64,000 nt of DNA from Gemmataceae bacterium (GTDB taxonomy: Bacteria; Planctomycetota; Planctomycetia; Gemmatales; Gemmataceae). The stretch is from assembly GCA_046350295.1 (NCBI GenBank), contig JAXMAR010000001.1, forward strand, positions 117,354 through 181,353, written 5' to 3'. Every line of letters starts with the position of its first letter. Positions within the stretch are counted from its first letter, which is position 1. The translations under genes were made by a program, and so were the position numbers. Below the pieces are notes generated by a model. It ran no database searches, was not told the DNA's origin, and saw only the letters and a program-made list of their open reading frames with translations. This document shows positions 9,344 through 40,447 of this stretch, piece by piece.

Positions 9344-9462
9344 CGAACCCGAAGCAAACCTCCGAGGACCGTCCGCGGCGAGCGCCCGGACGGTCCTTCT
9401 TTTCTCTACGACCACCTCGGAGGCGTGGCATAAGGTAGCCGGCGGTTGAGCCGGCGTCCCGT

Positions 9463-10581
9463 TCACCGCTTCAACAGCCCCGCCCCGTAGTCGTCCTCGG
9501 GGTTGCGGATGACCGTGTGGATGTGGTCGGTCCCGCCCTGCGGAGCGTACTCGATCACCACGGTCGGTCCCTGAATCCGGAAGTAGACCGCGCTCCCTTT
9601 CTCGGTCGGGCCGCTCCAGGCGAAGTAGGTCTCGCCGATCTTTCCCTTGATGGACGCCATGCGCGCCCGGGCCTCGTCGGGCTCCACGATGTTGATCCAG
9701 GCGCCGATCAGGTCGAGCAACAGCGCCTGCTGGTCGGCCTTCAGCGCCGAGCCCTTGATCCCCTTCGGCTCGATCTTGCGGCCGTCGCGGCCCGGCCCGA
9801 GCAGCAGCTCTCCTTGCGGGCGGTCGCCGATGATCGCCTGTGCCCGCTGCTTGTCGTCGAGGGCGGCGATCAGCTTGAACGCGGTGTCGTTTTCCAGGCC
9901 GAGCGGGCGGACGTCCTTGCCGTCGCGCTTGAAGAGCGTCGGCTGCGCCCCGGTGTGCGTCGGCGTGAGCACGAAGTGCTTGCCGATCACGGTGACGTTG
10001 ACGCCGAGGTGGTGGCCGCCGAACTGCACCATCCACGGCTCCGTCGCGGAGGGCTTGCCGAAGATCGCCAGGTAATACTGGTCGACGCCGAACATCCCCT
10101 TGCCGCCCTTGCCTTTGCCCTTGTCCTTGCCACCCTTGCCCCCCTTGCCCTCGGCCAGCAGCTGGTCGCCGTCCATGATGTCGACGACCTTCTGGTAGCC
10201 CCCCTTGCTGAGGACGGCGGCGACCACGTCCATCGCCTTGGTCCGCTGTTCTTTGGTGAGGTCGCCAAGCCGGACGCCGTTGCGCGGGACGAAGGTGACG
10301 GGCAGGTTGGACCAGCCGGATTTCTTCGGGCTGCCGAACTCGAAGATCGCCTTCTCGCGCTGCTTGGCGTCGAGCGCGCCGAGGAAGGCGTTGGCCGCCT
10401 CGACCGCCCGCGGCGTGGGGGCCGTCTTGCCCGTGGGGTCGTCGGCGGCCGGCGCCGGCGGCAACGGGGAGCGGGACAGGTAGAGCGCGGCGCCGATCGC
10501 CAGCACGGCGCCAAGCAGCGCGACGATCTTCCGGGCGCCGGTCCCGGTCCCGGTAAGAGGATCACGAATCGGAGTGCTCAT
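9463..10581 (-). CDS. DUF3500 domain protein (secreted), with an internal Gly/Lys low-complexity insert
   Basis: Conserved C-terminal block FAWSGPTEKGSAVYFRIQGPTVVIEYAPQGGTDHIHTV. N-terminal TM/signal segment. A KGGKGGKDKGKGKGGKG linker is also present. Confidence 0.75.
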   Translation of the reverse strand: MSTPIRDPLTGTGTGARKIVALLGAVLAIGAALYLSRSPLPPAPAADDPTGKTAPTPRAVEAANAFLGALDAKQREKAIFEFGSPKKSGWSNLPVTFVPRNGVRLGDLTKEQRTKAMDVVAAVLSKGGYQKVVDIMDGDQLLAEGKGGKGGKDKGKGKGGKGMFGVDQYYLAIFGKPSATEPWMVQFGGHHLGVNVTVIGKHFVLTPTHTGAQPTLFKRDGKDVRPLGLENDTAFKLIAALDDKQRAQAIIGDRPQGELLLGPGRDGRKIEPKGIKGSALKADQQALLLDLIGAWINIVEPDEARARMASIKGKIGETYFAWSGPTEKGSAVYFRIQGPTVVIEYAPQGGTDHIHTVIRNPEDDYGAGLLKR

Positions 10582-10721
10582 GGGATTCTCCCGTTACCTT
10601 GGCGCCAGCTTGATCGGCCTGGCGGTGACTTGATGGCTTGGATACCCGGATTCTACGGCGGCGGCCTATCGCACGCCAGACTTATGATCTTTGGGTGGTG
10701 GGAAGCACGAAAGCATGTTTT

Positions 10722-10923
10722 GAGCCCCAACGGGGTGGACAGCCAATAGCCAGGGGCGTGGGTGAGCCCCTGGGCCAGCGTCGATGCGAGTCCGCAAGCC
10801 CTGAAAGGGCGACAGAAACAGGGTATCGGCCGCGGCACTGTCGCCCTTCGGGGCTTGGGACCCGGGCGGACCTCGCCCCAGGGGCTACGCCCCTGGCTAT
10901 TGGCTCCCGCCCCGTTGGGGCTC
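10722..10923. repeat. roughly 200-bp hairpin (MITE/REP-like) element: about 50-bp imperfect inverted repeats flanking a loop that contains GCCCTGAAAGGGCGACAG
   Basis: Left arm gagccccaacggggtggacagccaatagccaggggcgtgggtgagcccctgggc; right arm gccccaggggctacgcccctggctattggctcccgccccgttggggctc. The loop carries an inner inverted repeat gggcgacag/ctgtcgccc and the same motifs as the repeat cluster at 28.2-28.7 kb. Confidence 0.6.
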
Positions 10924-11042
10924 AGCCCGGTCCGCCGCGGCTTGGAGACGTTGGCGACGCATTGCGCCCGGCTGCCACAAGAAGGACCGGTAACGTGGAC
11001 ACTGATAGCTGAACACCGCTTTGGATGGAGGATGTCGCTCGT

Positions 11043-11702
11043 CTAACCCTTCACCAGGTCGAGCACGCTCCACAGCGACGGGTCTTCCCAGAACGGAAAC
11101 TCCGACGTCACGCTCAACAGCTGCTCCCCCAGTTCCTCGTCGCGCACCGAGTAGAAGAAGCCGAGCCGGGAATGCTGCTCCGGGTCGTACCCCGTCAGGA
11201 GCGCCGCGGGCAGGAACGCTTCGAGGATGTAGCCCGATTTGTGGAACGTCGCCCGCACCGGGACCTTCTTCGGATCGGCCAGCGGCGCGTCTTCCAGCGC
11301 CCGGTTGATCCGCGATTGCGCCGCCACCGGCTCGTCATGATCGGCGCCGCCCCCCGCCGGCAGGAAATGAAACTGATGACAGTACCGGCTCGCCCGATGG
11401 CTGGCCCGGCTGTCGCGCGTGTCGAGCCAGAGGGTGACGCCGTCGGAGCCGCGCGGCCGCGACACGTCGGCCTGCGGCGGGTTGTCCTTGCCGCGCACGT
11501 CGACTTGAATCCCCAGGCCCAGCTCGTTCCAGGCCAGCCGCACCGTCGCGAAGTTCTTCTTCTCGTCGATGGCGGCGTTATTGTCGATGTCGCACGAGTC
11601 GTCGAGTTCGAGGAGCCGATCCTCCCGCGCAGCGGCACGTTCCCTGCGGTAGCGGCAAGGCTGGGCAAAGCGAAACAGGAAACGCGGCGGAACGAGGGCC
11701 AT
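11043..11702 (-). CDS. hypothetical protein (possible DOMON/CBM9-like sugar-binding fold)
   Basis: 219-aa ORF immediately downstream of nadA on the same strand. No clear motif was recognised. Confidence 0.5.
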   Translation of the reverse strand: MALVPPRFLFRFAQPCRYRRERAAAREDRLLELDDSCDIDNNAAIDEKKNFATVRLAWNELGLGIQVDVRGKDNPPQADVSRPRGSDGVTLWLDTRDSRASHRASRYCHQFHFLPAGGGADHDEPVAAQSRINRALEDAPLADPKKVPVRATFHKSGYILEAFLPAALLTGYDPEQHSRLGFFYSVRDEELGEQLLSVTSEFPFWEDPSLWSVLDLVKG

Positions 11703-11715
11703 CCAGGGATTCCGT

Positions 11716-12642
11716 TCAGTTCAGCAGCGAGCGCGTGAGCACCTCGCTCGCCCGGGCGAACTCCGGCTGCCAGGTGATCTCCGGCGTCCCCTTCACCAGG
11801 CAGTCGCGCAGGGTCTCGAGCGTGTTGCGAGCCATGTGCGGGCACTTGTTGCAGGCGCACGTGATGCCGGGGACCGGATGATAGCGATGCCGCGGCGCCT
11901 TGCTCTGGAGCTGCCACATCATGTTTGCCTCGGTCGCCACCAGAAAATCCTTCGGCTCGGCGTAACCCAGGACGTACTTGATCATCGCCTCCGTGCCACC
12001 GATGAAATCCGAATGCTCGCGGATGTTCGCCGGGCACTCGGGGTGCGCGATGGTGATCACCCCAGGCATCTTCCGCTTGGTCGCCAGCAGGTCGCCGACG
12101 CTGAAGACCTCGTGGACGATGCAGGAGCCGTTCCACAGGATCATCGGCCGGCCCGTCACCTCCTGAAGGTACTGGCCCAGATGGCGGTCGGGGACGAAGA
12201 GGATCTCGAACTCCTCCGGCACGCGGCGAATGATCTCCTCGGCGTTGCCGGAGGTGACGACCCACTCGGAAAGCGCCTTCACCGCGGCCGTGCTGTTGAT
12301 GTAGGTGACCGTCTGGAACTTCCGCCCGTTGGCGCGGAGCATCTCCTGGAAGCGCGCGAGCTTCTCGGCCGGGCAGCTCTCGGCGAGGCTGCATCCCGCC
12401 TTGAGGTCGGGCAAGAGGACGCGCTTCCGCGGGTTGAGCATCTTGGCCGTCTCGGCCATGAAGTGAACGCCGCAGAAGACGATGGTGTCGGTGTCGACCT
12501 TGGTGGCGGCGCGGGCGAGCTTGAGGCTGTCGCCGGTGAAATCGGCGAGGTCCTGAATCTCCCCCTCCTGGTAATAGTGGGCCAGGATGGTGGCGTTCTT
12601 GGTTTTCTTGAGGGATTGGATTTCCGAGACGAGATCGGTCAT
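11716..12642 (-). CDS. nadA: quinolinate synthase NadA
   Basis: Strong NadA signatures ([16 protein letters not shown], three Cys ligands). Start taken at MTDLVSEIQ. Confidence 0.9.
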
Positions 12643-12833
12643 GGGACGGATCCTTGTTTTTAATGTGGCGCAGGACGAACCCACATCCAGCCTTTTTAAA
12701 GACGGCCTTGCGTCTTCACCGTCATTTTACGACTCTCTCGGCCGAAAAACCACGCGAGGTCTTACCGCAGAGTTAGAGGGAAGCCACCTGAGGAGCGGTT
12801 CGCCTTTTCATGCGTTTCATCCGCGCAGCTCGA

Positions 12834-12990
12834 GAGTGCGTTCGGCTCCAGCCCGCGAAAGAGGCGCATGCCCACGAGCGTATCGTCGCCGCCATCCGCT
12901 CGGAGCTGGACGACGTGCGCCGGCGGCTCACGGCCGGCGAGAAGGTCGACGGCCAGGCCGGCCCCGACGAACGGCCTAACTGCGGCACGC
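12834..12990 (+). pseudogene. diverged fragment of a selA 5' end (selenocysteine synthase N-terminus), non-functional remnant
   Basis: The translation LQPAKEAHAHERIVAAIRSELDDVRRRLTAGEKVDGQAGPDE aligns with SelA residues LEPAKDRHAHERIVAAIRAELDDLRQRLAAGENVDGQAGADE at 14.49-14.62 kb. Nucleotide identity over about 130 nt is roughly 84%, and nothing SelA-like follows. Confidence 0.55.
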
Positions 12991-13163
12991 CAGGGACGAG
13001 CGCGATGGGCGGGGACTTCTTATTCCTGGGACGTGGGCTTTCGGGCTCTCGATCCCGTAGCAGTCCCCCTGCGGCACGGTGTCCCGACCGCGATCGGTTG
13101 GATTGGACGGGGCGCTTTCGGCCGGGTCTTTTGCGAGTGACACAGGGATGACATCGGCCGGGC

Positions 13164-13646
13164 CTACCCAGGACTACGTCGAAAAAAGTCGCGAACCTCC
13201 GCACGGCTCAGCACCCACAGGTGAATCACCCCGATCAAGAAGAGGAAGCAGGCATAACCAAAAGCCCACCAGCGTTCGGCGACACCGATATCGAACAATG
13301 CCATGGACCCCGACTTCGCGTCTATCACCCTATTCAGATCGACACCGACTGCCGAGAGCCAGATCACGGCCCCTGTCATCAGCAGACCAAAGCCGATCGC
13401 TACCCAACCACAGGCCAGGCCCACCGCCCGCGGGACCACGCGGCGGTAGAGCGCAACCCCAACCACAATCAGCGACAGAGCAAGCCCTCTCAGGATGTGC
13501 TCCTCTGCGAAGGGTGGAGCAATCCCCAACTGAGCGAGAGCAAACTGAACGAGAGTGATTACGAGTAGGCCGGCGCCCATAGAAATATCGATGCCGACAA
13601 GTACGGTCAGGGATCGCGGAACCCGAACATTCAACATGGCTGCCAT
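13164..13646 (-). CDS. hypothetical small integral membrane protein (four predicted TM helices)
   Basis: Hydrophobic segments throughout. It lies inside the inserted segment between the selA fragment and selA. Confidence 0.5.
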   Translation of the reverse strand: MAAMLNVRVPRSLTVLVGIDISMGAGLLVITLVQFALAQLGIAPPFAEEHILRGLALSLIVVGVALYRRVVPRAVGLACGWVAIGFGLLMTGAVIWLSAVGVDLNRVIDAKSGSMALFDIGVAERWWAFGYACFLFLIGVIHLWVLSRAEVRDFFRRSPG

Positions 13647-13713
13647 CGAATTCCTTCCTGAATCTCGGTGCGCCCTCCCCGTGGCCGAACGCCCAGTTCA
13701 GCCGCCGCGGCCC

Positions 13714-14235
13714 TCAGATATCGTCTTGCCGCGCTGCGACCGTAGGGGCCGCGGTCGGCTGCAACGCCTCGCTCGGCATGTCTTGGCACAGGGGCAGCAC
13801 TGCCGCATCGAAGCGGTAGGGAGCGAGCAGCGGACGCGTGCGGCCGGACAACTGGATACCCCACTCCGGCTTGCTCTTGAGGCCCTCATCGTCCCGGCCA
13901 ACCAGCAGCCCGGTCGGGGACAACCACGCCGTCGCCGGGATGAGATACAGGTCAGGCGGCTGGTCCTCCTCCAGCAGCACCAGGGCCAGCAGCCGGTCCG
14001 GGCGGAGCGGGAACTTGGTCTTGTGCATGAAGACGTAGTTCGACTCTCGCACCGACTTAACCTGCACCTCGTAGAACCCACCGGCGCCGTGCCGGGCCAC
14101 AAAGTCGATTCCCCGGTCGTCCACCTCGGCCGTGTACACCTCGAACCCGTACACGGCGAACTCCATCTTAACGAAGTACTCGGCGAACCGGCCTACCTGG
14201 TGCGAGTTCAGTCGGCTCCACGAGTACCGCCCCAT
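13714..14235 (-). CDS. PD-(D/E)xK nuclease-superfamily protein (restriction-endonuclease-like fold, DUF4365-like)
   Basis: The D...E-x-K arrangement GIDFVARH...YEVQVKS is an inference from the motif pattern. Confidence 0.45.
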   Translation of the reverse strand: MGRYSWSRLNSHQVGRFAEYFVKMEFAVYGFEVYTAEVDDRGIDFVARHGAGGFYEVQVKSVRESNYVFMHKTKFPLRPDRLLALVLLEEDQPPDLYLIPATAWLSPTGLLVGRDDEGLKSKPEWGIQLSGRTRPLLAPYRFDAAVLPLCQDMPSEALQPTAAPTVAARQDDI

Positions 14236-18457: not shown

Positions 18458-23080
<4,623 letters not shown>

Positions 23081-23161: not shown

Positions 23162-23884
23162 ATGTCATCTATTCTCGCGCCGCTAAACCTGAACACACCG
23201 TTGCCGGACCACAACCAGCTTCCGTCCAACGATGGAGTCCCCGTGCGCAACTCGCTCGAACCCTGGCAGAGTTCCCTCCTGAGCGAAACGTTGGAACCGG
23301 TTCTCCGCACGCGCTATCCCGAGGGTGACTATTTCATCGGCCAGGACTGCGGCATCTACTGGGAGAAAACCGACCCGCCGGCGCAGGGCTGCAAGGCGCC
23401 CGACTGGTACCTGATTCCCAATGTGCCACGCCTTCTCGACGGACAAATGCGACGCTCTTACGTGCTCTGGCAAGAGCTGGAGCTGCCTTTGGTCCTTCTC
23501 GAATATGCCTCGGACCGCGGCGCCGAGGAGCGCGACAACACTCCCATGCGCGGCAAGTTCTGGGTCTACGATCGCAAGATTCACCCCGCCTTCTACGGCA
23601 TTTATCTCCCGGATGAGGCCCGTATCGAAATGTACCACGCGGTCGAGCATCATCTCGAGTTGATGCCGTCCAACCAGGCCGGAAGGTTTCCAATCCGCGA
23701 TCTCGGTGTCGAACTGGGCATATGGCATGGCAGCTATGCCGGCTACGAAATCCCGTGGATGCGCTGGTGGGACGAGTCCGGTCGGCTGCTGCCGACCCGG
23801 GAAGAGTCTGAGATCCGCGAAAAGCTCGAGAACGAACGCCTGGCGGCAAAGCTGCGAGCCTTGGGCGTGGATCCGAATGTCTAG
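23162..23884 (+). CDS. Uma2-family (DUF820) putative restriction-endonuclease-like protein
   Basis: N-terminal [31 protein letters not shown] and [12 protein letters not shown]...[17 protein letters not shown] match the cyanobacterial/planctomycete Uma2 pattern. Confidence 0.6.
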
Positions 23885-32992: not shown

Positions 32993-33307
32993 GCCTCCGT
33001 TCGGACCCCGTAGGAGTCCAAGAAGGTAGCCGGCGGTTGAGCGCAGCGACACCGCCGGAACATGTTTGCCGCCAGCGTTCCGACCCCCGAACGGGGTCGC
33101 AGAGAAGATGGCGCCTCTTGCCGCGGTGGCCAAGTCCAGCTACTCCACGCCACGCCACCGAATTCCTTGCTTTTCCATTGGCCCAGGTGTAGCGTATCTA
33201 CCTTGTGGGATTGCGTTTCGGAGCGATTTGAGCCGGGGGAAAGATTCACCCGGCCGCCTTCCAGAGGTGTTGGAAGATCGCTGCCGTGCTGGTAACGGAC
33301 GGATGAG

Positions 33308-33937
33308 ATGACGAAGGCAAAGACGCCAAGACAGGGAACCTCTTCACCGACCTCAGCTGAGGCACCGGAAAAGGTGCTCTCCAGTATTGAGATACTTGCC
33401 GTGGCGGTCTTTCTTTTGGACGGGCATTCCCGATACGTGGACACTGAGGACATTGCAGTGAAAGCGAACGAAATTGCGCCCGGGAAGTTTAGCTGGGTGA
33501 AATACCAGGACCAGATTAACATCCACACCGTGAAGACTCATCTTTGGGACGCAAAGAGCGAGCGCAAGGGTAACCTGCTGCTCGGCTCGGAAAAGGAAGG
33601 ATGGATGCTTACGTCAGCCGGGCTAGACCTTGCACGTAGCCGATTGAATGGACTGAAAGGGATAAAACCCGAGAAGAAAAAACTGAGCGAACCAGAGAAG
33701 CAATGGATGAGGACCGAGCGTCTGAGAATGGTCGAAACGGCCGCGTACAAAAAGTGTGCATCGGGCCAGACCGGTGCAGTCACGCTCGACGAAGCTGAAG
33801 CTTTCTTTCGTTTAAACAGCTATGTGGTGGGGAAGGCAAGGGAACGGAAGATAGTCCGCGTCTTGAATCTATTCGGCGACGACTCGGAACTCGGTGACGC
33901 GGTAAAGGGTCTTGCGGGCCTTGTGCGAGGAAAGTAG
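33308..33937 (+). CDS. hypothetical protein, first gene of the low-GC three-gene cassette
   Basis: 209-aa ORF at about 53% GC in a 67% GC genome. It ends 3 nt before the GHKL ATPase gene. No motif was recognised (possible winged-helix-like region). Confidence 0.55.
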   Translation: MTKAKTPRQGTSSPTSAEAPEKVLSSIEILAVAVFLLDGHSRYVDTEDIAVKANEIAPGKFSWVKYQDQINIHTVKTHLWDAKSERKGNLLLGSEKEGWMLTSAGLDLARSRLNGLKGIKPEKKKLSEPEKQWMRTERLRMVETAAYKKCASGQTGAVTLDEAEAFFRLNSYVVGKARERKIVRVLNLFGDDSELGDAVKGLAGLVRGK

Positions 33938-33939
33938 AC

Positions 33940-35595
33940 ATGGCCGAAACATCCAAAGAGCTGGTTGTTCGGAGCCACGTGGCACGCGATCTTTTGCAAA
34001 CGGCCGGTCTTTTCAAAAGCGATCGATTGGTGGTTTGGGAATACGTAGCGAACGGGTTGCAGTACGTCGATCCTGGTACGAATCCACAAGTTCGGGTCAT
34101 GATCGATGCCAAGAAGAAACGCATCGCGATTTCTGATAACGGCCGAGGCATGGATTGGCGAGGCCTTCAGAATTTCTTTATTATGCACGGTGAGAATCTT
34201 GATCGAAAGGAGGGCAAGGCCGGCCGAGGTAGGTTCGGGACGGGTAAATCTGCCGCATTCGGAATAGCGGATACGCTGCGATTGTCAACTGTATGCAACG
34301 GGAGCCGGTCGATTGTCGAGCTCCGCCGAAGGGACATTCAGGCCATGACCTCGGGCACGGAGATTCCGGTGAAGGTAGTTGAGCGAGAAACGCGCACGTC
34401 TGACCCGAATGGCACGTTGGTTGAAATCGAGAACGTCTCCCTCCGCTCCATCGATCAGGCCAGCATCATTCGGTATATCGAGAGGCACATGGCGCGGTGG
34501 CCAAAAAACATAACCGTATCCGTGAACAACCATCTCTGCGACGTCTCGGAGCCGCCCCTGGATCGTGAGATAAGACACCGAGCGCAAGGACGAACGCGAG
34601 AGATACTTGGAGACGTCGAATTGGTCGTAAAGACATCAAAGCGTCCTCTCGAAGAAGATGAACGCGGCATTTCAATTTTTTCTCGCGGGATTTGGCACGC
34701 TGTTACGCTTGCCGGTTGCGAGGGAAGGGACATGTCGCAGTACATTTTCGGCGAGATCGATGTCCCCCGACTGGAAGAGGATGTCTCGGCTGTCCCGCCC
34801 TTTGATGTCACGCGGTCCATGGAACTGAACCCAAACAACGATCTCGTCCGGGAAGTTTTCGCTTTTATCTATGAGAAGGTGGAGGACATTCGTCGGAGCC
34901 TGATGGAAGTCGAGCGCCGTCGCAAGGCGACCGAAGAAGCGCGGAAGCTTGCCACGCAAGCGGCAGAAATCGCAAATGTGATCAATGAGGACTTCGATAC
35001 TTTCCGCGGCAAGGTCGCCAAAGTAAGAGCGAAAGCGGTCGGCGGCACAGATCTTTTTGGAATCCGGACAAAGGGGGAGGAGCCGGAGAGCGCACTGGTT
35101 TCTGGCGGACCGCTCCCGGCGTCGGAGGTGAGCCCAATTGGAAGTGAGGGAAAGAGCGGTGACGGGGAGACGGCTGGAGGCGATCCTCCAGATCTGAAGC
35201 CGTTCTTGCAGCCTCAAGACGATGGCCCAGAGAAGGGTCAGCCGGTCAAGGCTGCACCGAAGAAGGTCCGTCCACGAGGGGGGTTCCAGGTGAGATTCGA
35301 GCATATTGGCACAGAGTCGAACCGAGCGAAGTACGTTTCGGATGAGCGCACCATTTACCTGAATCTTGATCATCCGCAACTCCTTGCGGCACGAGGAGCG
35401 GGGCCTGTGGAAGATCCAACATTTCGTCGGCTTGCCTATGAGGTGGCTTTTACAGAGTACTCAATCGCTCTGGCGACCGAACTCGCTCAGCTGGAGGGCT
35501 ACTATATTGACCCAACGGACCCGATTTTTGATATCGGGGAGACCCTCAATCGGCTTGCACGGAAGGGCGCCCGGCTTTATTCGGCCACGAATTAG
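33940..35595 (+). CDS. GHKL-superfamily ATPase (Hsp90/MORC-like HATPase_c domain) with a C-terminal extension
   Basis: N-box/G1/G2-like motifs VVWEYVANGLQYVD, ISDNGRGMDWRGLQNFF and GRGRFGTGKSAAFGIADTL are typical of Bergerat-fold ATPases. Low-GC codon usage. Confidence 0.75.
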   Translation: MAETSKELVVRSHVARDLLQTAGLFKSDRLVVWEYVANGLQYVDPGTNPQVRVMIDAKKKRIAISDNGRGMDWRGLQNFFIMHGENLDRKEGKAGRGRFGTGKSAAFGIADTLRLSTVCNGSRSIVELRRRDIQAMTSGTEIPVKVVERETRTSDPNGTLVEIENVSLRSIDQASIIRYIERHMARWPKNITVSVNNHLCDVSEPPLDREIRHRAQGRTREILGDVELVVKTSKRPLEEDERGISIFSRGIWHAVTLAGCEGRDMSQYIFGEIDVPRLEEDVSAVPPFDVTRSMELNPNNDLVREVFAFIYEKVEDIRRSLMEVERRRKATEEARKLATQAAEIANVINEDFDTFRGKVAKVRAKAVGGTDLFGIRTKGEEPESALVSGGPLPASEVSPIGSEGKSGDGETAGGDPPDLKPFLQPQDDGPEKGQPVKAAPKKVRPRGGFQVRFEHIGTESNRAKYVSDERTIYLNLDHPQLLAARGAGPVEDPTFRRLAYEVAFTEYSIALATELAQLEGYYIDPTDPIFDIGETLNRLARKGARLYSATN

Positions 35596-35607
35596 AACGC
35601 GAGGCGA

Positions 35608-37983
35608 ATGACGCCCATGCCGATTTCTCGCTACCCGAGGCAAGGCCACCCGCTTGCACCGACAATACTGAAGCCCGTGTTGGGCGTCCGCATTCCAAAG
35701 AAGCTCTTGGGAAGCGCAGTAACAAACGTCGTTTTCTTTTCCGACCTCACAAAGAGCGCGTGGGAGACGTTTCCTCCGGAAGTCTGCCGACAACTGGGAA
35801 CGGCACTCGTCGAGACCATCCGGGCAGTTAACCTTACAAAGACCATTCTTCGCACGCCTCTTCCGGCTGTCCCACCCAGCTTATCGATCGAAGACTTGGA
35901 ATTGGAGCAACGCACGTACAACTGTCTTTGCAAGATGCGACGCGAGGGCCTCCTTGCCGGTCCAGAGGAACTGAGCACAAAGACGATTCGGGATATCCTC
36001 AACGTAGAGCATTTCGGTGCAAAAAGCCTAGTGGATCTGCTCACCTCGCTCGAAGCCGCAGGTACGGATGCAGCTCCGAACCTCAATGAGGAAGGCAAAT
36101 CAAAGGAAGCAGCCATATTAAGCGAAGACACGCTCGCGGCAGCGTTCGTTGGCCGTCTCCGCAATCTGCGTTTACCCACCCTTCCGGCCGGCATCGAACT
36201 CGGCGATCTCCATTTGGCAAAGGAAACTCATGCTTGTTTGGTTGAAGAGGGGTTTGCGGCTCGGATTGGAGAGTTGGCGAACCTCACACTCGCAGAGGCG
36301 TTGACGATTCGAGGGTTTGGGATTGAGAGATTGCTGGATTACCTGGACGCTGTGGACCACGTCAAACGGGACGCAAATGGCAAACCCGAGCAGGCTGTCG
36401 GACCTCGACTGAACGACTATGAGCGCCTAATGCGCTATCTGTTCAGACCGGGGCGGTCGACCGCGCTACGTGTCAAAGCCGAGCCCCAGGAACGTCACCG
36501 ATATCTTGAGGACGAGATGCGGGCCCTGATAAAAGGGAGCTTCAAGAGTAACAAAGCCGCGAACTTTGGGCGGAACACCGACATGATCGCAACGTACTAC
36601 GGTTGTGACGGTCGGGGAGGCGCAACCTTGGCCGAGGTTGCTAACCAATACGGGTTGACGAGGGAGCGCGTCCGGCAGATTTGCATGAAGTCTGCGCAAC
36701 GAATGAAAAAGGGCGGAATCCAACCGGAGCGTCTGAGAGCGGTGTCCCGCAGGATCACTGAACTCTTGCCATGTGAAGCGGACTCGCTGGAAAGGGTTCT
36801 GCAAAGCGAAGGATTCACACGAGGCGCCTTCAGGGTGAAGGGAGTGCTACTGTTTTCACAGATGTTGGGAGAACCGGCGCTGTTTCAACTGGAGGATATT
36901 GATGGACGGCGAATGGTCGTTGCTCCCGAGACAGCTCGAATGACAAGGCGAACGATCTTCCAGAGCCGCAAGGCGGTATCTCAATTTGGCGTGGCGACCG
37001 TATTGGATCTGGCCGCCGTGCTATCTGAGCAGTTGTCCACAACGATGACGCCGGAAGTTGTAACTCGGGTGCTCAATTCCCAACCTGGATTCGAGTGGCT
37101 CGATCGTGAAGCGGGATGGTTCTGGTTCCGACATCTTCCGAGAAATCGCGTCGTAAGCCGCATTCGCAAGATTCTATCAGTTTCCGAGGGTATCGATGTA
37201 GGTGAACTCCGAATCGGAATTGCCAGGCACCATGCGATGGATGGGTACGCACCGCCAAAAAAGGTCCTTTTGGAGCTTTGTAAACGATTGCCCTATTGCG
37301 TGGTCGACGGACATGTTGTGCGTGCGGAGCCACCGATTGATTGGAAGACTACACTTCGAGGCGCCGAGTTGTCATTGATAACGATCTTAAAGGAGAACGG
37401 CCCAGCCATGCAGAGACCTAAGCTTGAAAAGCGCTGTCTGGACCTAGGCATGAAGCGTTCTACGTTCTACGCCTACTTGAGCTATTCGCCGGTAATTGAG
37501 AGATATGCTTCCGGCGTCTACGGTATTCGCGGAGCAGCAATCGAACCAGGGGTCGTCGAATCCCTTATTCCTTATACCCAGCGAACTAGAGGTGTTCGCC
37601 TTGACCACGGTTGGACGCGCGATAGGCGCATTTGGATCGGATACTGCGTCTCCGAAGGAATGCTTGGCAATGGCGCCTTTAGCGTTCCCGCGGGCCTCAA
37701 GCAGTTTCTTCAAGGGACGTATGCGATGAAGAGTGCCGATGGGGCCGCCATAGGAACGGTTGTGGTCAAGGACAACGCAGGCTGGGGTCTTGGAACATTG
37801 TTTCGGCGCAGAGGCGGTGAGCCGGGTGACACGTTACTTCTTATTTTCGACGCAAAGGCGCAGCTGGTTACGGCCGCTGTGGGAGACGAAGGTCTACTGG
37901 AGCAATTCGACGATGAGGGGGAGGAAGAACAGGCAACGGAGGCGGGGAAGGAGGGGGAAGGAGGCGCTGCGCCCCCGTCGTAA
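35608..37983 (+). CDS. large multidomain protein with two RNAP alpha-CTD-like helix-hairpin-helix repeats and a sigma-70 region-4-like HTH
   Basis: LELEQRTYNCLCKMRREGLLAGPEELSTKTIRDILNVEHFGAKSLVDLLTSLE and LHLAKETHACLVEEGFAARIGELANLTLAEALTIRGFGIERLLDYL resemble RpoA alpha-CTD. ATLAEVANQYGLTRERVRQICMKSAQRMKK resembles sigma-70 region 4.2. The C-terminal roughly 400 aa are unassigned and the tail is acidic. Confidence 0.65.
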   Translation: MTPMPISRYPRQGHPLAPTILKPVLGVRIPKKLLGSAVTNVVFFSDLTKSAWETFPPEVCRQLGTALVETIRAVNLTKTILRTPLPAVPPSLSIEDLELEQRTYNCLCKMRREGLLAGPEELSTKTIRDILNVEHFGAKSLVDLLTSLEAAGTDAAPNLNEEGKSKEAAILSEDTLAAAFVGRLRNLRLPTLPAGIELGDLHLAKETHACLVEEGFAARIGELANLTLAEALTIRGFGIERLLDYLDAVDHVKRDANGKPEQAVGPRLNDYERLMRYLFRPGRSTALRVKAEPQERHRYLEDEMRALIKGSFKSNKAANFGRNTDMIATYYGCDGRGGATLAEVANQYGLTRERVRQICMKSAQRMKKGGIQPERLRAVSRRITELLPCEADSLERVLQSEGFTRGAFRVKGVLLFSQMLGEPALFQLEDIDGRRMVVAPETARMTRRTIFQSRKAVSQFGVATVLDLAAVLSEQLSTTMTPEVVTRVLNSQPGFEWLDREAGWFWFRHLPRNRVVSRIRKILSVSEGIDVGELRIGIARHHAMDGYAPPKKVLLELCKRLPYCVVDGHVVRAEPPIDWKTTLRGAELSLITILKENGPAMQRPKLEKRCLDLGMKRSTFYAYLSYSPVIERYASGVYGIRGAAIEPGVVESLIPYTQRTRGVRLDHGWTRDRRIWIGYCVSEGMLGNGAFSVPAGLKQFLQGTYAMKSADGAAIGTVVVKDNAGWGLGTLFRRRGGEPGDTLLLIFDAKAQLVTAAVGDEGLLEQFDDEGEEEQATEAGKEGEGGAAPPS

Positions 37984-38025
37984 CGATCGGCTACAATTTC
38001 TGATGTCGAGCAAAAGGGGTTTGCC

Positions 38026-38238
38026 ATGTCTATTGCTGAGATCCTCCCGGCGGTTCAGGCTCTCTCTCCGAGTGAGAAGCTCGATCTCGCGCGTCTGTTG
38101 CTCGAGGACTTGGCCAAGGAGGGATTGCCGACGGTCTTCAAGAAGGGACAGGCTTATCCAATCTACACGCCTGAATACACTCCCGGCGCTGCGGCACAAC
38201 TCGCCCAGGTCCTCAGGGAGGACGGGACTCGGTCATGA
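38026..38238 (+). CDS. putative addiction-module (antitoxin-like) component, TIGR02574-like
   Basis: 70-aa MSIAEILPAVQALSPSEKLDLARLLLEDL... pattern. Confidence 0.45.
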   Translation: MSIAEILPAVQALSPSEKLDLARLLLEDLAKEGLPTVFKKGQAYPIYTPEYTPGAAAQLAQVLREDGTRS

Positions 38239-38338
38239 GCGCTGTCGAGCAGTTTCAGTATTGCGATCGGGACCCGGCTTCGGGCGGGCTTGATCTGATG
38301 CCAGATTTGCCCATCGTCCTTCGCCATCAACCCACTCG

Positions 38339-38665
38339 TTGTCGACCGTCGCACTGGTCGATAGCGGCGCGTCGATCAGCGTTCTGCCCTATTCGCTGGG
38401 CGTGCAGCTTGGCTTTGACTGGAACAGCCAGAAGGCGCCGATCACGCTTGGAGGGACTCTCGCCCAGGTTGACGCCCGCGGGATCGTGGTCGAGGCGGTC
38501 ATTGGACAGCTCGCGCCGGTGCGCCTCGCGCTGGCCTGGGCCAATTCGGATCAGGCGCCGTTTCTGCTCGGACAGTTCAATTTCTTCCAGGCGTTCGATG
38601 TTTGCTTCTTCCGCTCGCGCGGCATCTTCGAGATCAGGCGGCCCGGCACGACAAGTTCTCCATGA
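38339..38665 (+). CDS. retropepsin-like (clan AA) aspartic protease domain protein
   Basis: ALVDSGAS active-site motif. No ATG: the ORF-track start is TTG at 38339, with the frame open from 38294. Confidence 0.5.
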   Translation: MSTVALVDSGASISVLPYSLGVQLGFDWNSQKAPITLGGTLAQVDARGIVVEAVIGQLAPVRLALAWANSDQAPFLLGQFNFFQAFDVCFFRSRGIFEIRRPGTTSSP

Positions 38666-38712
38666 GCGCTAAGACGTCCGAGGTCGACATTGACCTCCCC
38701 GCCGAGGCCCAA

Positions 38713-39708
38713 TCAGCGCATGACCGTCACCGTCGGCCGTCGCTTCCGAAAGGCCGCGGCGCCGGCGTCGGTCACGGTGTCCCTGGGCAGGCAGAGGGTG
38801 CGGAGGTTTTCCAGGCCCGCCAACGGTTCGAGGCCGGCGTCCGTCACCTTGGTCCGGTTGAGCTGGACGATCTCCAGGCTCTTGATCTTCGCCAAGGACT
38901 TCATGCCGGCGTCGGTCGCCTGCGTGTCCGACAGGTCGATGTACTTGAGCGTGGTCAGGCCCGCGAGGGCTTCGAGGCCCCGGTCGGACACCGGCGCCGT
39001 CCACAGGCTGAGATGCTCGAGGTTCTTCAGGGCGGCGACATCTTTGAGGCCGGCGTCGTGGGCCGAGCCGTCGAGGGAGACGTGGCGCAGGCGCTTGAGG
39101 CCGGCGAGGTCCTCGAAGCCGGTTCCCGTGACGGAGGTGAAGCAGAGGTCAGGGATTCGAGGTCGGTCATGCCGGCGGATGTTTCAGGGCGGCGTCGCTG
39201 ATCTTGGAGCAGCCGATGCCGAGCGTGTGCAGCCGGGTGAGGCCGGCGAGGTTTTGACGCCGGCGTCGCTCGCCTTGGTATAGCGGATGTAGAGGCTCTT
39301 GAGGCTGGTGAGGTGGGCGATCTCCTGGAGGTCGGCGTCGGTAACGTAGGTCTGGTCGAGGTCGAGCGCCTCGAGGTTTTTGAAGCGGGCCAGCTCGCGC
39401 AGCTCCTTGCCGCTCGCGTTGGTCCGGTTGAGGTCGAAGGCGAAGGGGCCGGAGGGGACGGGCAAGGAGGCGATGAGGCCGAACTCGAACGGCTTGCCGC
39501 CGGGCCAGCGGACGGCGGGGAGGGCGGGCTGATCGGGCCTGGTCTCCTGAAACAGGCGCCAGCCGCGTTTATCCTCGGGGAGCCAGCCGACCTTGGCGCC
39601 GACGCCGCGCCAGAGAGCGGCCGCCTTGGCGTCGAAGCCCGCGGGCTCCTGGGCGCGGGCGGAGGGGGTGGCGCCGAGGAGGAGGATGGCGAGCAGGAGG
39701 CGGTTCAT
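38713..39708 (-). pseudogene. secreted leucine-rich-repeat protein, disrupted by at least two frameshifts (about 39160 and 39230)
   Basis: Signal peptide MNRLLLAILLLGATPSARA. LRR units (LDLDQTYVTDADLQEIAHLTSLKSLYI...; LAGLTRLHTLGIGCSKISDAAL; LAGLTTLKYIDLSDTQATDAGMKSL...) are spread over three frames. Confidence 0.6.
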
Positions 39709-39785: not shown

Positions 39786-40214
39786 TCAGGGTGTCGGCGG
39801 CACGGGAAGGGAAGCGACCAGATCGGCAGGCGTTTGCAGGGGGATTGGGGACGCCGCAAAGCCGCGCGGATCGCGAGTGATAATCGCGTCAACACGGGCC
39901 TGAACGGCACATGCGATTTGAAGATCATCTTCGAAATCAGGACCGGAGCGGGCCTGGGCGGCAAGCAAGGTCGCCTGATCGATCGGGGCGATATCCAGTG
40001 TGCTCAAGCAAGCCTGCACCACGGCCTGTGCCGTGGACGATCCTGCCTGCTTGCGAACGACGTAGAAGATCGTGGGGATAGAAAACGCGGCGACCAGCGC
40101 CTGGATGCGACCCTGGCGATGAGCATCCCAGACGAGGGCCATATCCGCGGCCCAAGGAAGGCGATTCAAGAACAGATCCAGGAGAACACTGGTGTCCAGG
40201 AGGTACTTCTTCAT
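39786..40214 (-). CDS. vapC: type II toxin VapC (PIN domain)
   Basis: MKKYLLDTSVLLDLF... PIN N-terminus. 4-nt overlap with the upstream antitoxin gene. Confidence 0.8.
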   Translation of the reverse strand: MKKYLLDTSVLLDLFLNRLPWAADMALVWDAHRQGRIQALVAAFSIPTIFYVVRKQAGSSTAQAVVQACLSTLDIAPIDQATLLAAQARSGPDFEDDLQIACAVQARVDAIITRDPRGFAASPIPLQTPADLVASLPVPPTP

Positions 40215-40447
40215 CCGTGCTTTTCCAGCCGATGCTCCTCGATCCAGCGCTTGATTGTCTCATCGTCGGGTGGGACGCCCGCGCCGGCCGCGATGCCACG
40301 AACCTGCGCCGCCGGTACGCCGCGGCACTGCGGCGCCGCGGCTTCCGCGGTAACAACAACGACTTCGACCTTGGCCCCTTCCGGCAGCGGCGAGCTGGGA
40401 ACGACGACGCCGTTGGTCACGACGCCGGTGATGGTGGTGGACATGGC
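40211..40447 (-). CDS. vapB: VapB-type antitoxin (DUF104/AbrB-like), paralog of 5006-5236
   Basis: MSTTITGVVTNGVVVPSSPLPEGAKVEVVVV. Same motif as the other antitoxin: G.V.NGVVV...LPEGA.V.V. Confidence 0.65.
   Translation of the reverse strand, partial: AMSTTITGVVTNGVVVPSSPLPEGAKVEVVVVTAEAAAPQCRGVPAAQVRGIAAGAGVPPDDETIKRWIEEHRLEKHG

Follow-up and report, generated by a model that had tools for sequence, protein, structure and literature searches.

The window analyzed here, a 64 kb stretch of Gemmataceae DNA, contains at positions 33,308–37,983 an island of three plus-strand genes, A, B and C, which, judging by sequence evidence, is a self-contained, horizontally acquired operon and a mobile, accessory cassette. 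The cassette combines an orphan protein (A), a MORC-like GHKL ATPase (B) and a DNA-reading protein (C), and it is probably a new genetic-conflict or silencing machine that is free of nucleases. The preferred explanation of its role, to which we assign somewhat less than an even chance, is that of a mobile conflict system: C would read promoter-like DNA, load the ATPase clamp and silence invaders (phages or other mobile DNA).

The GC content of the island is 55.5%, versus 65.3% in the other segments of the same length across the 64 kb (sd 1.4, minimum 62.3%, n = 501), i.e., about 7 sd under the background. The dip, the significance of which an earlier note on this DNA had left to be checked, is thus highly significant relative to the 501 other segments of the window; that note was right about its kind, while the drop from about 67% to about 53% given there slightly overstates the figures. 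The GC3 values of A, B and C are 0.61, 0.60 and 0.60, respectively, as compared to 0.92 in the adjacent SPFH and PfkB genes. In a 300-bp scan, the GC content stays at about 0.70 or above as far as about 33.1 kb, is 0.62 at 33.0–33.3 kb and 0.52–0.62 over the cassette, and is about 0.63–0.67 again from 38.2 kb. The low-GC and low-GC3 island that holds the cassette spans approximately 33,100–38,300 (unstranded), with edges mapped to about 33.1–33.3 kb and 38.0–38.3 kb. A search at the island detected no tRNA, and no convincing flanking repeats were found around it.

The three ORFs, coding for proteins of 209 (A), 551 (B) and 791 aa (C), lie exactly where they had been placed earlier, and gene calls made independently on an identical metagenomic contig gave 209, 551 and 788 aa. 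The ORFs are tightly packed, as claimed, with real spacers of 2 nt (A–B) and 12 nt (B–C); the previously given gaps of 3 and 13 nt are coordinate differences. A pattern scan of 185,579 species genomes yielded 67 loci, and A-B-C was found in nearly all of those with enough sequence, in at least 12 phyla. Hence, the operon that the packing had suggested is conserved across loci, and the co-localization in other taxa that the earlier note had proposed to look for was observed in nearly every homologous locus. The A–B junction has a median of −6.5 nt (50 loci), and the B–C junction a median of 17 nt (across loci). In 44 out of 68 loci, the window included, A, B and C are all intact single ORFs, and in five loci C lies upstream of A-B in the opposite orientation, with the adjacency kept. 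Clustering of the flanking ORFs of the 67 loci revealed no conserved fourth gene.

The GC content of the cassette is lower than that of its flanks in 54 out of 63 loci (mean, 4.9 points), and the triad looks compositionally foreign in most hosts. The product of B from the Gemmataceae window is 60% identical to copies from Bacillota and Pyrinomonadales, and 49–51% identical to other Planctomycetota copies. About one-fifth of the loci are disrupted. Taken together, the GC/GC3 dip, the low GC content of the cassette elsewhere, the cross-phylum identity of B, and the disrupted loci argue for horizontal mobility and accessory status. The median identity decreases from B (52%) to A (44%) and C (30%), and the identity of B exceeds that of C in 100% of the 1,035 locus pairs. 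This order of conservation, together with the varying number of modules in the sensor-like C, is consistent with the signature of a conflict system. For a defence gene, however, the conservation of B is unusually high, which counts against the conflict reading. The B family comprises more than 1,852 clusters in metagenomes, and most of the lineages in which the cassette occurs are uncultured ones from soil, peat and fresh water. No copy of the cassette turned up on a phage, a plasmid or an IMG/VR viral contig, and no conserved DNA motif that would hint at autoregulation was found upstream of the operon.

In the window, the neighbourhood of the cassette includes a 70-aa antitoxin-like ORF and a retropepsin-like ORF with a D-S-G-A motif, LRR remnants, and a PIN_3/VapBC-like pair, so that the neighbours listed earlier (a TA-like pair with a retropepsin-like protease, an LRR pseudogene and VapBC) were all verified. 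The defence-island setting deduced from them does not hold in general, as a minority of the loci have restriction-modification (RM), toxin-antitoxin or transposase neighbours. Ordinary housekeeping genes are the immediate neighbours in about half of the cases, and many cassettes stand alone among such genes. Methylases, SNF2/DEAD helicases, Mrr_N, PIN, AbiEii or transposases occur near the cassette in some other loci, and a Pfam and PADLOC census of 224 neighbours revealed only scattered RM or helicase genes. Outside the window, the link of the cassette to defence islands appears weak.

Gene A (33,308–33,937, plus strand) encodes the 209-aa orphan protein and adjoins B on the upstream side in most of the loci that include this side, abutting or overlapping the start of B. 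No match to A was found in Pfam, NCBIfam, PADLOC or PHROGs, and no relative in the PDB. The members of the A family (947 representatives at 50% clustering) are nearly all stand-alone proteins of about 190–210 aa, with invariant residues T46, E47, D48, P58, F61, W63, K65, G93, W99, R140, F167, Y172, R178 and D192. The sequence pattern suggests a candidate winged-helix-like region in the N-terminal part (approximately residues 25–110), followed by a conserved helical C-terminal half.

The N-terminal part of B (residues 1–190; 33,940–34,509, plus strand) is a GHKL (Bergerat-fold) ATPase domain in which no catalytic motif is missing; it matches HATPase_c_3 of Pfam (E-value, 4e-12; 46.7 bits versus a cut-off of 25). 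The Bergerat-fold motifs recognized earlier are invariant in 17 diverse homologs: E34/N38 (motif I), D66-x-G68-x-G70 (motif II), G97..G100-T-G102-K103 (motif III) and N157-G158-T159 (motif IV). Judged by these motifs, B is a GHKL ATPase with its catalytic apparatus intact. An S5-like transducer domain follows (residues 191–300; 34,510–34,839, plus strand) and forms a MORC-type ATPase module with the GHKL domain, an arrangement by which Iyer et al. 2008 delimit MORC ATPases. The fold search returned MORC3 and MORC2 as the closest folds to this module (B model of moderate quality, pLDDT 62), suggesting that it is most like eukaryotic MORCs. The S5 motif of MORCs, G-h-X-h-h-p-X-X-R-h-l, is absent from B: its nearest stretch is G243-I-S-I-F-S-R-G-I-W, the family consensus is GISIYSxGVW, and the diagnostic Arg position is occupied by I/V in 17 out of 17 sequences. 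Thus, B has the MORC fold and, by the S5 motif, is not a member of the MORC family. The N-terminal region of B also gave a sub-threshold match to the BbrUII/HgiDII restriction enzyme family (E-value, 4.7e-13; 48.5 bits, cut-off 550).

Downstream of the transducer domain, residues 301–445 of B (34,840–35,274, plus strand) are predicted to form a long coiled-coil helix (301–368) and then a low-complexity, low-confidence linker; this is the variable stretch of the alignment. The C-terminal domain (residues 446–551 and the stop codon; 35,275–35,595, plus strand), with three β strands followed by three α helices, is conserved, and 36 out of its 112 alignment columns are invariant, including GGFxVxF, RAxY, RxIxxNxxHPQ and FxRLxxExxFxEY. 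Its invariant polar residues are H478, Q480, E501, E506, R462, R470 and R497. No Pfam match was obtained for this domain in any member, and no sequence relative in the PDB at E ≤ 10.

The product of C is a large non-catalytic reader, in which no catalytic domain was found. It begins with a conserved N-terminal domain (residues 1–86; 35,608–35,865, plus strand; AF2 pLDDT 80–96) with nearly invariant P10, P18, L21, L25, L47, D48, W52 and C60, which is missing in 27 out of 54 locus homologs. Two modules similar to the RNA polymerase (RNAP) α C-terminal domain (αCTD) come next. The first one (residues 90–153; 35,875–36,066, plus strand) keeps the DNA-binding "265 determinant", while the second one (residues 186–256; 36,163–36,375, plus strand) is degenerate in the window copy, having, by alignment to E. 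coli RpoA, Glu at the R265-equivalent and Ala at the N268-equivalent position; the former is Arg in 22 out of 34 family members. The number of αCTD copies per C protein varies from zero to three across loci, and 13 out of 54 C proteins have none. A complete σ70 region 4 of the group-1/2 type (4.1 and 4.2; residues 298–370; 36,499–36,717, plus strand) was matched at an E-value of 2e-13 with its RERxRQ helix conserved. The Pfam matches (RNA_pol_A_CTD, 1.6e-9; Sigma70_r4, 6e-6) agree with the two αCTD-like modules and the σ70 region 4 already proposed, and the GLTRERVRQI motif is present at residues 349–358.

Equivalents of σ70 R584/E585/R586/R588/Q589 and of α R265/N268/C269/G296/K298/S299 are kept in C, and throughout the family the DNA-contact residues of the αCTD and σ4 modules are nearly invariant. 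The residues conserved in C are those that RpoA and σ70 use on UP-element and −35 DNA. The C-terminal part of about 400 aa exists as described but is not unassigned: it consists of four tandem winged-helix (WH) domains (residues 374–645; 36,727–37,542, plus strand) and a B3-type DNA-binding pseudobarrel (residues 660–762; 37,585–37,893, plus strand) of the EcoRII-N/BfiI-C/LlaJI.R1-N/plant B3 fold, before an acidic, low-confidence tail (residues 763–791 and the stop codon; 37,894–37,983, plus strand; pLDDT <60). The B3 fold is supported by two methods, the seven-stranded pseudobarrel being superimposable on B3 domains. B3 domains are classic readers of restriction enzymes, such as EcoRII and BfiI; the one of C shares the fold of the EcoRII N-domain, the BfiI C-domain and the LlaJI.R1 N-domain without a sequence-level relationship, and, unlike those systems, the operon carries no nuclease or McrBC-type GTPase. 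No Sigma70_r2 or r3 match was found in C or 34 homologs, the PDB profile matches cover region 4 only, and no Pfam match to the α N-terminal domain was obtained, the NCBIfam rpoA models matching the last 60 residues only, far below the cut-off. Lacking σ regions 2/3 and the α N-terminal domain, C is neither a σ factor nor an α subunit. The two αCTDs and one σ4 of the window C mirror the holoenzyme composition, but, unlike in RNAP, these modules sit in a WH/B3 DNA-binding scaffold tied to an ATPase operon.

Comparison with PADLOC 2.0.0, NCBIfam 20.0, Pfam and PHROGs matched A, B and C to no named system, and none was found in the literature searched, in line with the earlier note, to whose author the architecture was familiar from no described system. 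Searches of Pfam, NCBIfam, PADLOC and PHROGs, PDB profile searches and a fold search revealed no effector of the nuclease, toxin, membrane or signalling kind in the three proteins. According to the available portion of the survey by Iyer, Abhiman and Aravind (2008, PMC2292703), prokaryotic MORC/paraMORC ATPases are encoded in operons of the restriction type, some of which also code for B3 (VP1/RAV) proteins, and are proposed to loop or clamp DNA in an ATP-driven manner in conflict systems. In common with them, as described there, B has GHKL and S5 domains with intact motifs and a sporadic, laterally mobile distribution, as well as, in common with paraMORCs, a family-specific C-terminal extension past S5; the B3 partner, occasional in paraMORC operons, is likewise shared. 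Unlike those operons, the cassette neighbourhood has no conserved SF-II helicase, nuclease or methylase, and typical RM partners are rare (C5-methylase in four and Vsr in three of the 67 loci). Neither ExxxH of paraMORC2 nor HxH of paraMORC5, both taken from their description in that portion, was seen to be conserved in the B alignment, and 17 B members gave no Pfam match to a nuclease or TIR domain (paraMORC3/paraMORC4). The same portion of the survey does not describe an orphan protein of 200 aa or a σ4/αCTD/WH/B3 reader as partners.

The MZA anti-phage system of NCBIfam, which comprises the σ70-family protein MzaA, the GHKL ATPase MzaB and further Mza proteins (NF041931/NF041932; PADLOC MzaA), resembles the cassette in that a candidate defence operon brings a large σ70 region-4 HTH protein together with a GHKL ATPase. 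Residues 299–367 of C align to the C-terminal σ4 of MzaA (E-value, 2e-6), and the GHKL core of B aligns weakly to MzaB (E-value, 0.013). These matches are sub-threshold and at the domain level only (MzaA, 26.9 bits versus a cut-off of 800; MzaB, 13.9 versus 850; PADLOC MzaA, E-value 0.002 over 48 residues only), and the assignment to MZA was rejected. VcSduA, a validated anti-phage system, also has a GHKL ATPase, fused in one protein of the paraMORC3-type Shedu to a DUF4263 PD-(D/E)xK nuclease, with a predicted clamp-like middle domain; both ATPase and nuclease are needed for its activity (PMC12137116). B, in contrast, has no DUF4263 or other nuclease domain and always travels with two partner genes; as no DUF4263 match (E ≤ 0.1) was found in B or 17 homologs, and no PADLOC Shedu model matched, B is not Shedu. 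Eukaryotic MORCs (MORC2, MORC3; also SMCHD1) carry their histone readers (CW, chromo-like and others) as cis fusions, whereas the cassette supplies its readers in trans, through A and C, from RNAP modules of bacterial type together with WH and B3 domains; the sequence identity with B is only about 14–15%.

Under the preferred explanation, C would bind a −35-type hexamer via σ4 and contact the adjacent A/T-rich minor groove via the αCTD, and the WH array and B3 domain would add further DNA contacts. Together with A, it may recruit or license B, which on ATP binding would dimerize, as in other GHKL/MORC ATPases, and clamp or compact the C-bound DNA, so that the transcription or replication of the invader would be silenced rather than the DNA cut. 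With no effector seen in any of the three proteins, the silencing or compaction output is proposed solely by analogy with eukaryotic MORCs. A generic −35/UP-like reader would bind host promoters too, and neither a methylase nor evident self/non-self discrimination was seen, which counts against the conflict reading, as do the weak defence-island association, the effector-free A, B and C, and the missing phage, plasmid or viral copy. A narrower proposal, which we regard as rather unlikely, is a mobile bacterial complex of the three proteins for nuclease-free, MORC-type silencing, whose RNAP modules, winged helices and B3 domain would find promoter-like DNA of invaders and load the ATP-driven clamp on it, which would make it a prokaryotic counterpart, possibly a forerunner, of the silencing of transposons and viruses by eukaryotic MORCs; in a variant of it, the RNAP modules would be built-in decoys for sensing phage factors that hijack the host polymerase.

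That three unrelated ORFs merely share a low-GC patch, by chance or annotation artefact, is next to inconceivable: only the absence of a known domain in A speaks for it, and it is refuted by the recurrence of the same three families, in the same order and with overlapping or abutting junctions, in dozens of loci of different phyla, most with all ORFs intact, and by the large size of the B and A families. A more serious candidate, still an unlikely one, is that the cassette has no role in immunity and serves as an accessory regulator of chromatin or transcription, or as a selfish module for silencing; it would bind particular promoters or RNAP (σ4, β-flap) and, by means of the ATPase, remodel or repress the transcription of genes of the host or of resident mobile elements. 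Every recognizable non-ATPase domain being a transcription or DNA-binding module fits this proposal, as do the absent effector, the many cassettes among housekeeping genes, the high conservation of B, expected with conserved cellular partners such as RNAP, and the role of eukaryotic MORCs, transcriptional silencers according to the portion of the literature available. The sporadic spread over at least 12 phyla with only 67 loci in the pattern scan, the foreign composition in most hosts, the frequent gene decay and the fast-diverging reader subunit are instead traits of accessory conflict genes and not of host-network regulators, and the missing upstream motif also argues against regulation.

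It is less likely still that C acts as an RNAP decoy or guard, its σ4 and αCTD mimicking the RNAP surfaces hit by anti-σ factors (σ region 4) and αCTD Arg265-modifying enzymes, so that the capture of such phage factors would activate the ATPase B and elicit a response. The most conserved residues of C are the DNA-contacting ones, and the same protein contains a B3 domain besides its four WH domains, an indication that its ligand is DNA. Moreover, the αCTD is absent altogether from a quarter of the C proteins (13/54), decoys should track the host σ and α sequences, yet the cassette moves between phyla, and no effector is visible here either. Similarly improbable is a restriction-like system, in which the nuclease would be residues 446–551 of B, or A, or unlinked, and the ATPase would link the recognition of sites by C with DNA cleavage, a coupling put forward for restriction operons that contain MORC/paraMORC proteins. 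B3 domains serve as readers in EcoRII, BfiI and LlaJI.R1, the C-terminal domain of B is extremely conserved with invariant polar residues, and the BbrUII/HgiDII match, albeit sub-threshold, lies in the same protein, all of which favours this proposal. In addition, paraMORC C-terminal extensions are typically known or suspected nucleases, e.g., the RE-fold of paraMORC3 and HxH of paraMORC5, according to the available portion of the survey (PMC2292703), and VcSduA requires its nuclease besides the ATPase (PMC12137116).

If the conflict reading is true, a widespread immune or silencing system (>1,850 B clusters, at least 12 phyla), entirely missed by current defence-finder libraries, would be added, with a defence logic that has no visible nuclease or toxin and ties bacterial paraMORC-type ATPases to eukaryotic MORC silencing. 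It raises the question of whether invaders are targeted via their promoters or polymerase-hijacking phage factors are baited. Even if the cassette is a regulator, A and the C-terminal domain of B represent large, strongly conserved families without an assigned fold or function. On the preferred explanation, C would be a case of σ4 and αCTD modules reused outside RNA polymerase with their DNA-contact residues intact.

A 1-kb composition profile revealed a sole sustained GC trough in the window, located at 33–38 kb, where GC content falls to 0.54–0.57 against approximately 0.65. The interval 33308–37983 has a GC content of 55.5%, compared to a mean of 65.3% (sd 1.4, minimum 62.3) in 501 other windows of the same length, and GC3 of its three genes, A, B and C, is 0.61, 0.60 and 0.60, respectively, versus 0.92 in the adjoining SPFH and PfkB genes. 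The low-GC island claimed in the earlier note is thus real, and the placement of its three ORFs proved to be exact: A (33308–33937, + strand, 209 aa), B (33940–35595, + strand, 551 aa) and C (35608–37983, + strand, 791 aa) are separated by spacers of 2 nt (A-B) and 12 nt (B-C). Independent gene calls on an identical metagenomic contig gave products of 209, 551 and 788 aa, and an identical B is on record from a Gemmataceae MAG. On both sides lie ordinary chromosomal genes: those upstream encode PfkB kinase, SRPBCC and SPFH proteins, and the downstream one encodes a DUF7133-HEAT protein. No tRNA was found in the window, so none marks the island boundaries; direct repeats flanking the island were not convincing, and the whole window gave no Rfam matches to ncRNAs. 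The promoter and terminator scan, based on a σ70 consensus that may not fit Planctomycetota, yielded no signal over the shuffled expectation, and no k-mer upstream of gene A, as a candidate C binding site or sign of autoregulation, exceeded the GC-rich background.

B is an intact MORC-like ATPase. It matches HATPase_c_3 (E-value, 4e-12), and all four Bergerat-fold motifs (E34/N38, D66-x-G68-x-G70, G97..G100-T-G102-K103 and N157-G158-T159) are invariant in an alignment of 17 homologs taken from different contigs. The AlphaFold model of B, which is of moderate quality only (pLDDT 62), shows the GHKL core and, after it, another domain rich in β strands (residues ~190–300) and a 68-residue helix (301–368); a linker without ordered structure then leads to a C-terminal domain that is compact. 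In Iyer et al. (PMC2292703), the MORC family is defined via the S5-domain motif GhXhhpXXRhl. The corresponding stretch of B reads GISIFSRGIW, and since the diagnostic Arg is replaced by I or V in every homolog, B has the MORC fold yet lies outside the MORC family as delimited by that motif. The C-terminal domain (446–551), with 36 of 112 columns invariant, is the most conserved piece of B that lacks an assignment; no relative of it was found in Pfam, nor in the PDB by sequence.

C is a non-catalytic reader built of DNA-binding modules, the DNA-contact residues of which are conserved; no catalytic domain is present in it. Alignment to authentic E. coli RpoA and RpoD, with conservation assessed over 34 family members, revealed that the recognition helix of its σ70 region 4 (σ4), T351-RERVRQI, is equivalent to T583-RERIRQI of σ70, a stretch that includes the σ70 residues contacting the -35 hexamer, and that these positions are kept in 31–34 of the 34 members. 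Downstream of the N-terminal domain (residues 1–86), the first module resembling the RNA polymerase α C-terminal domain (αCTD) retains the '265 determinant': R102, the counterpart of R265, is found in 34/34 members, and N105, C106, G137, K139 and S140 correspond to N268, C269, G296, K298 and S299, respectively. The second αCTD module (residues 186–256) is degenerate in the window copy, with Glu replacing Arg. Four tandem winged helices (residues 374–645; SelB WH1–4, UFL1/DDRGK1) and a B3 domain, called from its fold only, are also present; the profile of the B3 segment found no sequence-level relatives in the PDB. The constant core of σ4, winged-helix array and B3 is present in 50 of 54 proteins, the number of αCTD modules varies from 0 to 3, and identity within C is 28–45% in the folded domains versus 11–16% in the linkers. 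Because σ regions 2/3 and the α N-terminal domain are absent, C is neither a σ factor nor an α subunit. The anatomy deduced in the earlier note (GHKL ATPase, αCTD modules, σ70 region 4) was therefore borne out and then extended, and the promoter-reading modules of RNA polymerase appear here in an unexpected setting, put to new use.

A is a partner gene that abuts or overlaps B. Its product has no matches in Pfam, NCBIfam, PADLOC, PHROGs or the PDB, and its homology to a part of C was rejected (hhalign probability, 0.3%). In an exhaustive HMM search with 50% clustering, the family came to 947 representatives, of which almost all are stand-alone proteins of about 200 aa; among the best 150 of the 947, no fusion hinting at a partner was informative. 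The sequence suggests that the N-terminal region of A may be a winged helix.

More than 1,852 cluster matches were obtained for B at 58–70% identity, from sources including Gemmataceae, Verrucomicrobia and Fimbriimonadales, along with 62 word-index matches for C (identity 26–61%) and 113 for A, many of them carried by the same contigs. A B-anchored scan, limited to one genome per species, identified 67 loci in Acidobacteriota, Verrucomicrobiota, Planctomycetota, Chloroflexota, Actinomycetota, Bacillota, Eremiobacterota, Eisenbacteria, Abditibacteriota, Alpha-, Beta- and Gammaproteobacteria, Myxococcota, Desulfobacterota and Bdellovibrionota. Profile HMMs for A, B and C, run over all ORFs of these loci, showed a colinear A-B-C order in nearly all loci with enough sequence, with median junctions of -6.5 nt (A-B) and 17 nt (B-C). 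In five loci (L021, L029, L037, L055 and L058), an inverted C precedes A-B and is still linked to it; thus, the linkage outlasts rearrangement. A chance juxtaposition of the three genes is excluded. All-against-all clustering of the flanking ORFs revealed no fourth gene, integrase or transposase conserved with the cassette.

The cassette has a lower GC content than its flanks in 54 of 63 loci (mean gap, 4.9 points). The window B shares 60% identity with copies from Bacillota and Acidobacteriota versus 49–51% with other Planctomycetota copies, and this closer affinity to other phyla points to horizontal transfer. Median pairwise identity decreases from B (52%) to A (44%) and C (30%), B being more conserved than C in 1,035 out of 1,035 locus pairs. 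Among 72,556 plasmids, just one partial match (33% identity) was found, on a Rhizobium replicon, and the cassette was not found in 50,697 phage genomes and 2.9 million viral contigs (IMG/VR). A-B-C is, in short, one conserved, mobile unit, a triad that is widespread, strongly conserved and unannotated, and whose function we infer.

With the window counted, all three genes are intact as single ORFs in 44 of 68 loci. The remaining loci are mostly cut by contig ends; about a dozen carry a frameshift, an interruption or a truncation, and some of these cases may reflect long-read assembly errors. Insertions of ~1–1.4 kb, possibly IS elements, split C in one Acidobacteriota locus (L003, ~12591–13995) and B in another (L047, ~11350–12362), which suggests that decay of the cassette is ongoing in some hosts. 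Among loci with room for partners, the only clear solo B is a homolog of 44% identity from Planctomycetaceae (L043, 5746–7413), with A and C missing within 5–10 kb.

The earlier note had placed the island in a defence-type neighbourhood, a description that fits the window and does not extend to other loci. A 70-aa ORF directly after C (38026–38238, + strand) has a sub-threshold match to the addiction-module family Unstab_antitox (18.3 bits; cut-off, 23.3), and a 108-aa ORF (38339–38665, + strand) carries the retropepsin-like D-S-G-A motif (LVDSGASISVL); their GC contents are intermediate (0.59 and 0.63, respectively), and the pair is not kept with the cassette elsewhere. On the opposite strand, leucine-rich-repeat remnants with weak LRR_4/LRR_8 matches (~38669–39708, - strand) are followed by a PIN_3-domain toxin (39786–40214, - strand; precomputed Pfam on the identical contig) and, upstream of the toxin gene, a 77-aa ORF (~40211–40444, - strand), the small partner in a VapBC-like pair. 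The repeat remnants appear as several split ORFs in the window ORF list versus a single 332-aa gene call on the identical contig. Farther upstream of the studied region lie a very long ORF of 1,540 aa (18458–23080, + strand) and a 240-aa ORF (23162–23884, + strand) of the Uma2 family of putative restriction endonucleases (E-value, 1.2e-7, over the Pfam cut-off).

In a census of 224 immediate neighbours at loci other than the window, N6-methylases, SNF2/DEAD helicases, Mrr_N, ORF6N, PIN, AbiEii and IS110 transposases are among those in the first half, and the second half is mostly housekeeping, e.g., PEPCK, catalase, GroEL/ES and carbamoyl-phosphate synthase. Recurrence is limited to an AbrB-type antitoxin (9 loci), PIN (5), C5-methylase (4) and Vsr (3), and guilt by association with defence islands is weak. 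The AbrB/SpoVT-type antitoxin gene lies immediately upstream of the cassette in its nine loci (e.g., L040, 8663–9396), often along with a PIN toxin (5 loci); possibly, a toxin-antitoxin pair sometimes co-travels with the cassette. The parA/parB genes adjoining its upstream side in three related Chloroflexota (L017, L020 and L023) represent synteny common to relatives, with no functional link.

None of the three proteins matched a PADLOC 2.0.0 model at E < 0.001, and no NCBIfam 20.0 model exceeded its curated cut-off. Openly readable full texts yielded no account of an operon combining GHKL with σ4/αCTD, so that a prior description elsewhere is possible. In the anti-phage system MZA, a σ70-family protein likewise has a GHKL ATPase as its partner, in parallel to C and B; MZA was found in the literature in survey papers only. 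Assignment of the cassette to MZA was rejected: the scores for MzaA (26.9 bits versus a cut-off of 800) and MzaB (13.9 versus 850) are 30–60 times under, similarity is confined to σ4 and the GHKL core, and the other Mza genes are absent nearby. The closest described class comprises the MORC/paraMORC ATPases (PMC2292703), which share with the cassette the ATPase module, lateral mobility, a family-specific C-terminal extension and, occasionally, a B3 partner. The hallmarks of those operons, however, are helicases, nucleases and methylases, all of which the cassette lacks, and none of the paraMORC2-5 signatures, as quoted, was seen in B. VcSduA (PMC12137116) provides an example of validated anti-phage defence driven by a GHKL ATPase and, unlike B, has a fused DUF4263 nuclease. 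The cassette is classified as a putative conflict system that is nuclease-free, is centred on a GHKL/paraMORC ATPase and has a novel set of partners.

A role for the cassette in defence or regulation is a well-motivated hypothesis. A-B-C may combine a promoter-DNA reader with an ATPase clamp that silences invading DNA, a reading that is quite possible and that we advance tentatively. C would read promoter-like DNA, with σ4 at a -35-type hexamer, the αCTD at the neighbouring A/T-rich minor groove, and the winged-helix array and B3 providing extra contacts; together with A, it would recruit or license B. ATP binding would then dimerize B, as in other GHKL enzymes, and B would clamp or compact the DNA, so that its transcription or replication would be silenced. 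A, B and C show no trace of a nuclease, a toxin or a domain for signalling, which makes silencing the most economical output, in line with the eukaryotic MORC analogy.

Four points chiefly weaken the silencing reading: an effector is missing, B is conserved to an unusual degree, the defence-island signal is weak, and a self/non-self principle is absent; a -35/UP reader should bind host promoters too. The cassette could instead be an accessory regulator of transcription or chromatin, outside immunity, which seems rather unlikely. The RNA polymerase modules of C could also be decoys for phage factors attacking σ4 or αCTD, which appears improbable. A restriction-like system, in which the nuclease would be the strongly conserved, unassigned C-terminal domain of B or would be encoded at an unlinked site, is similarly improbable. 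A practical handle for direct tests is offered by Maritimibacter alkaliphilus HTCC2654, the sole cultured carrier found (L050, NZ_CH902578.1 832114–853748, cassette at ~9373–13428), in which C is devoid of αCTD modules and consists of σ4, the winged-helix array and B3 only.
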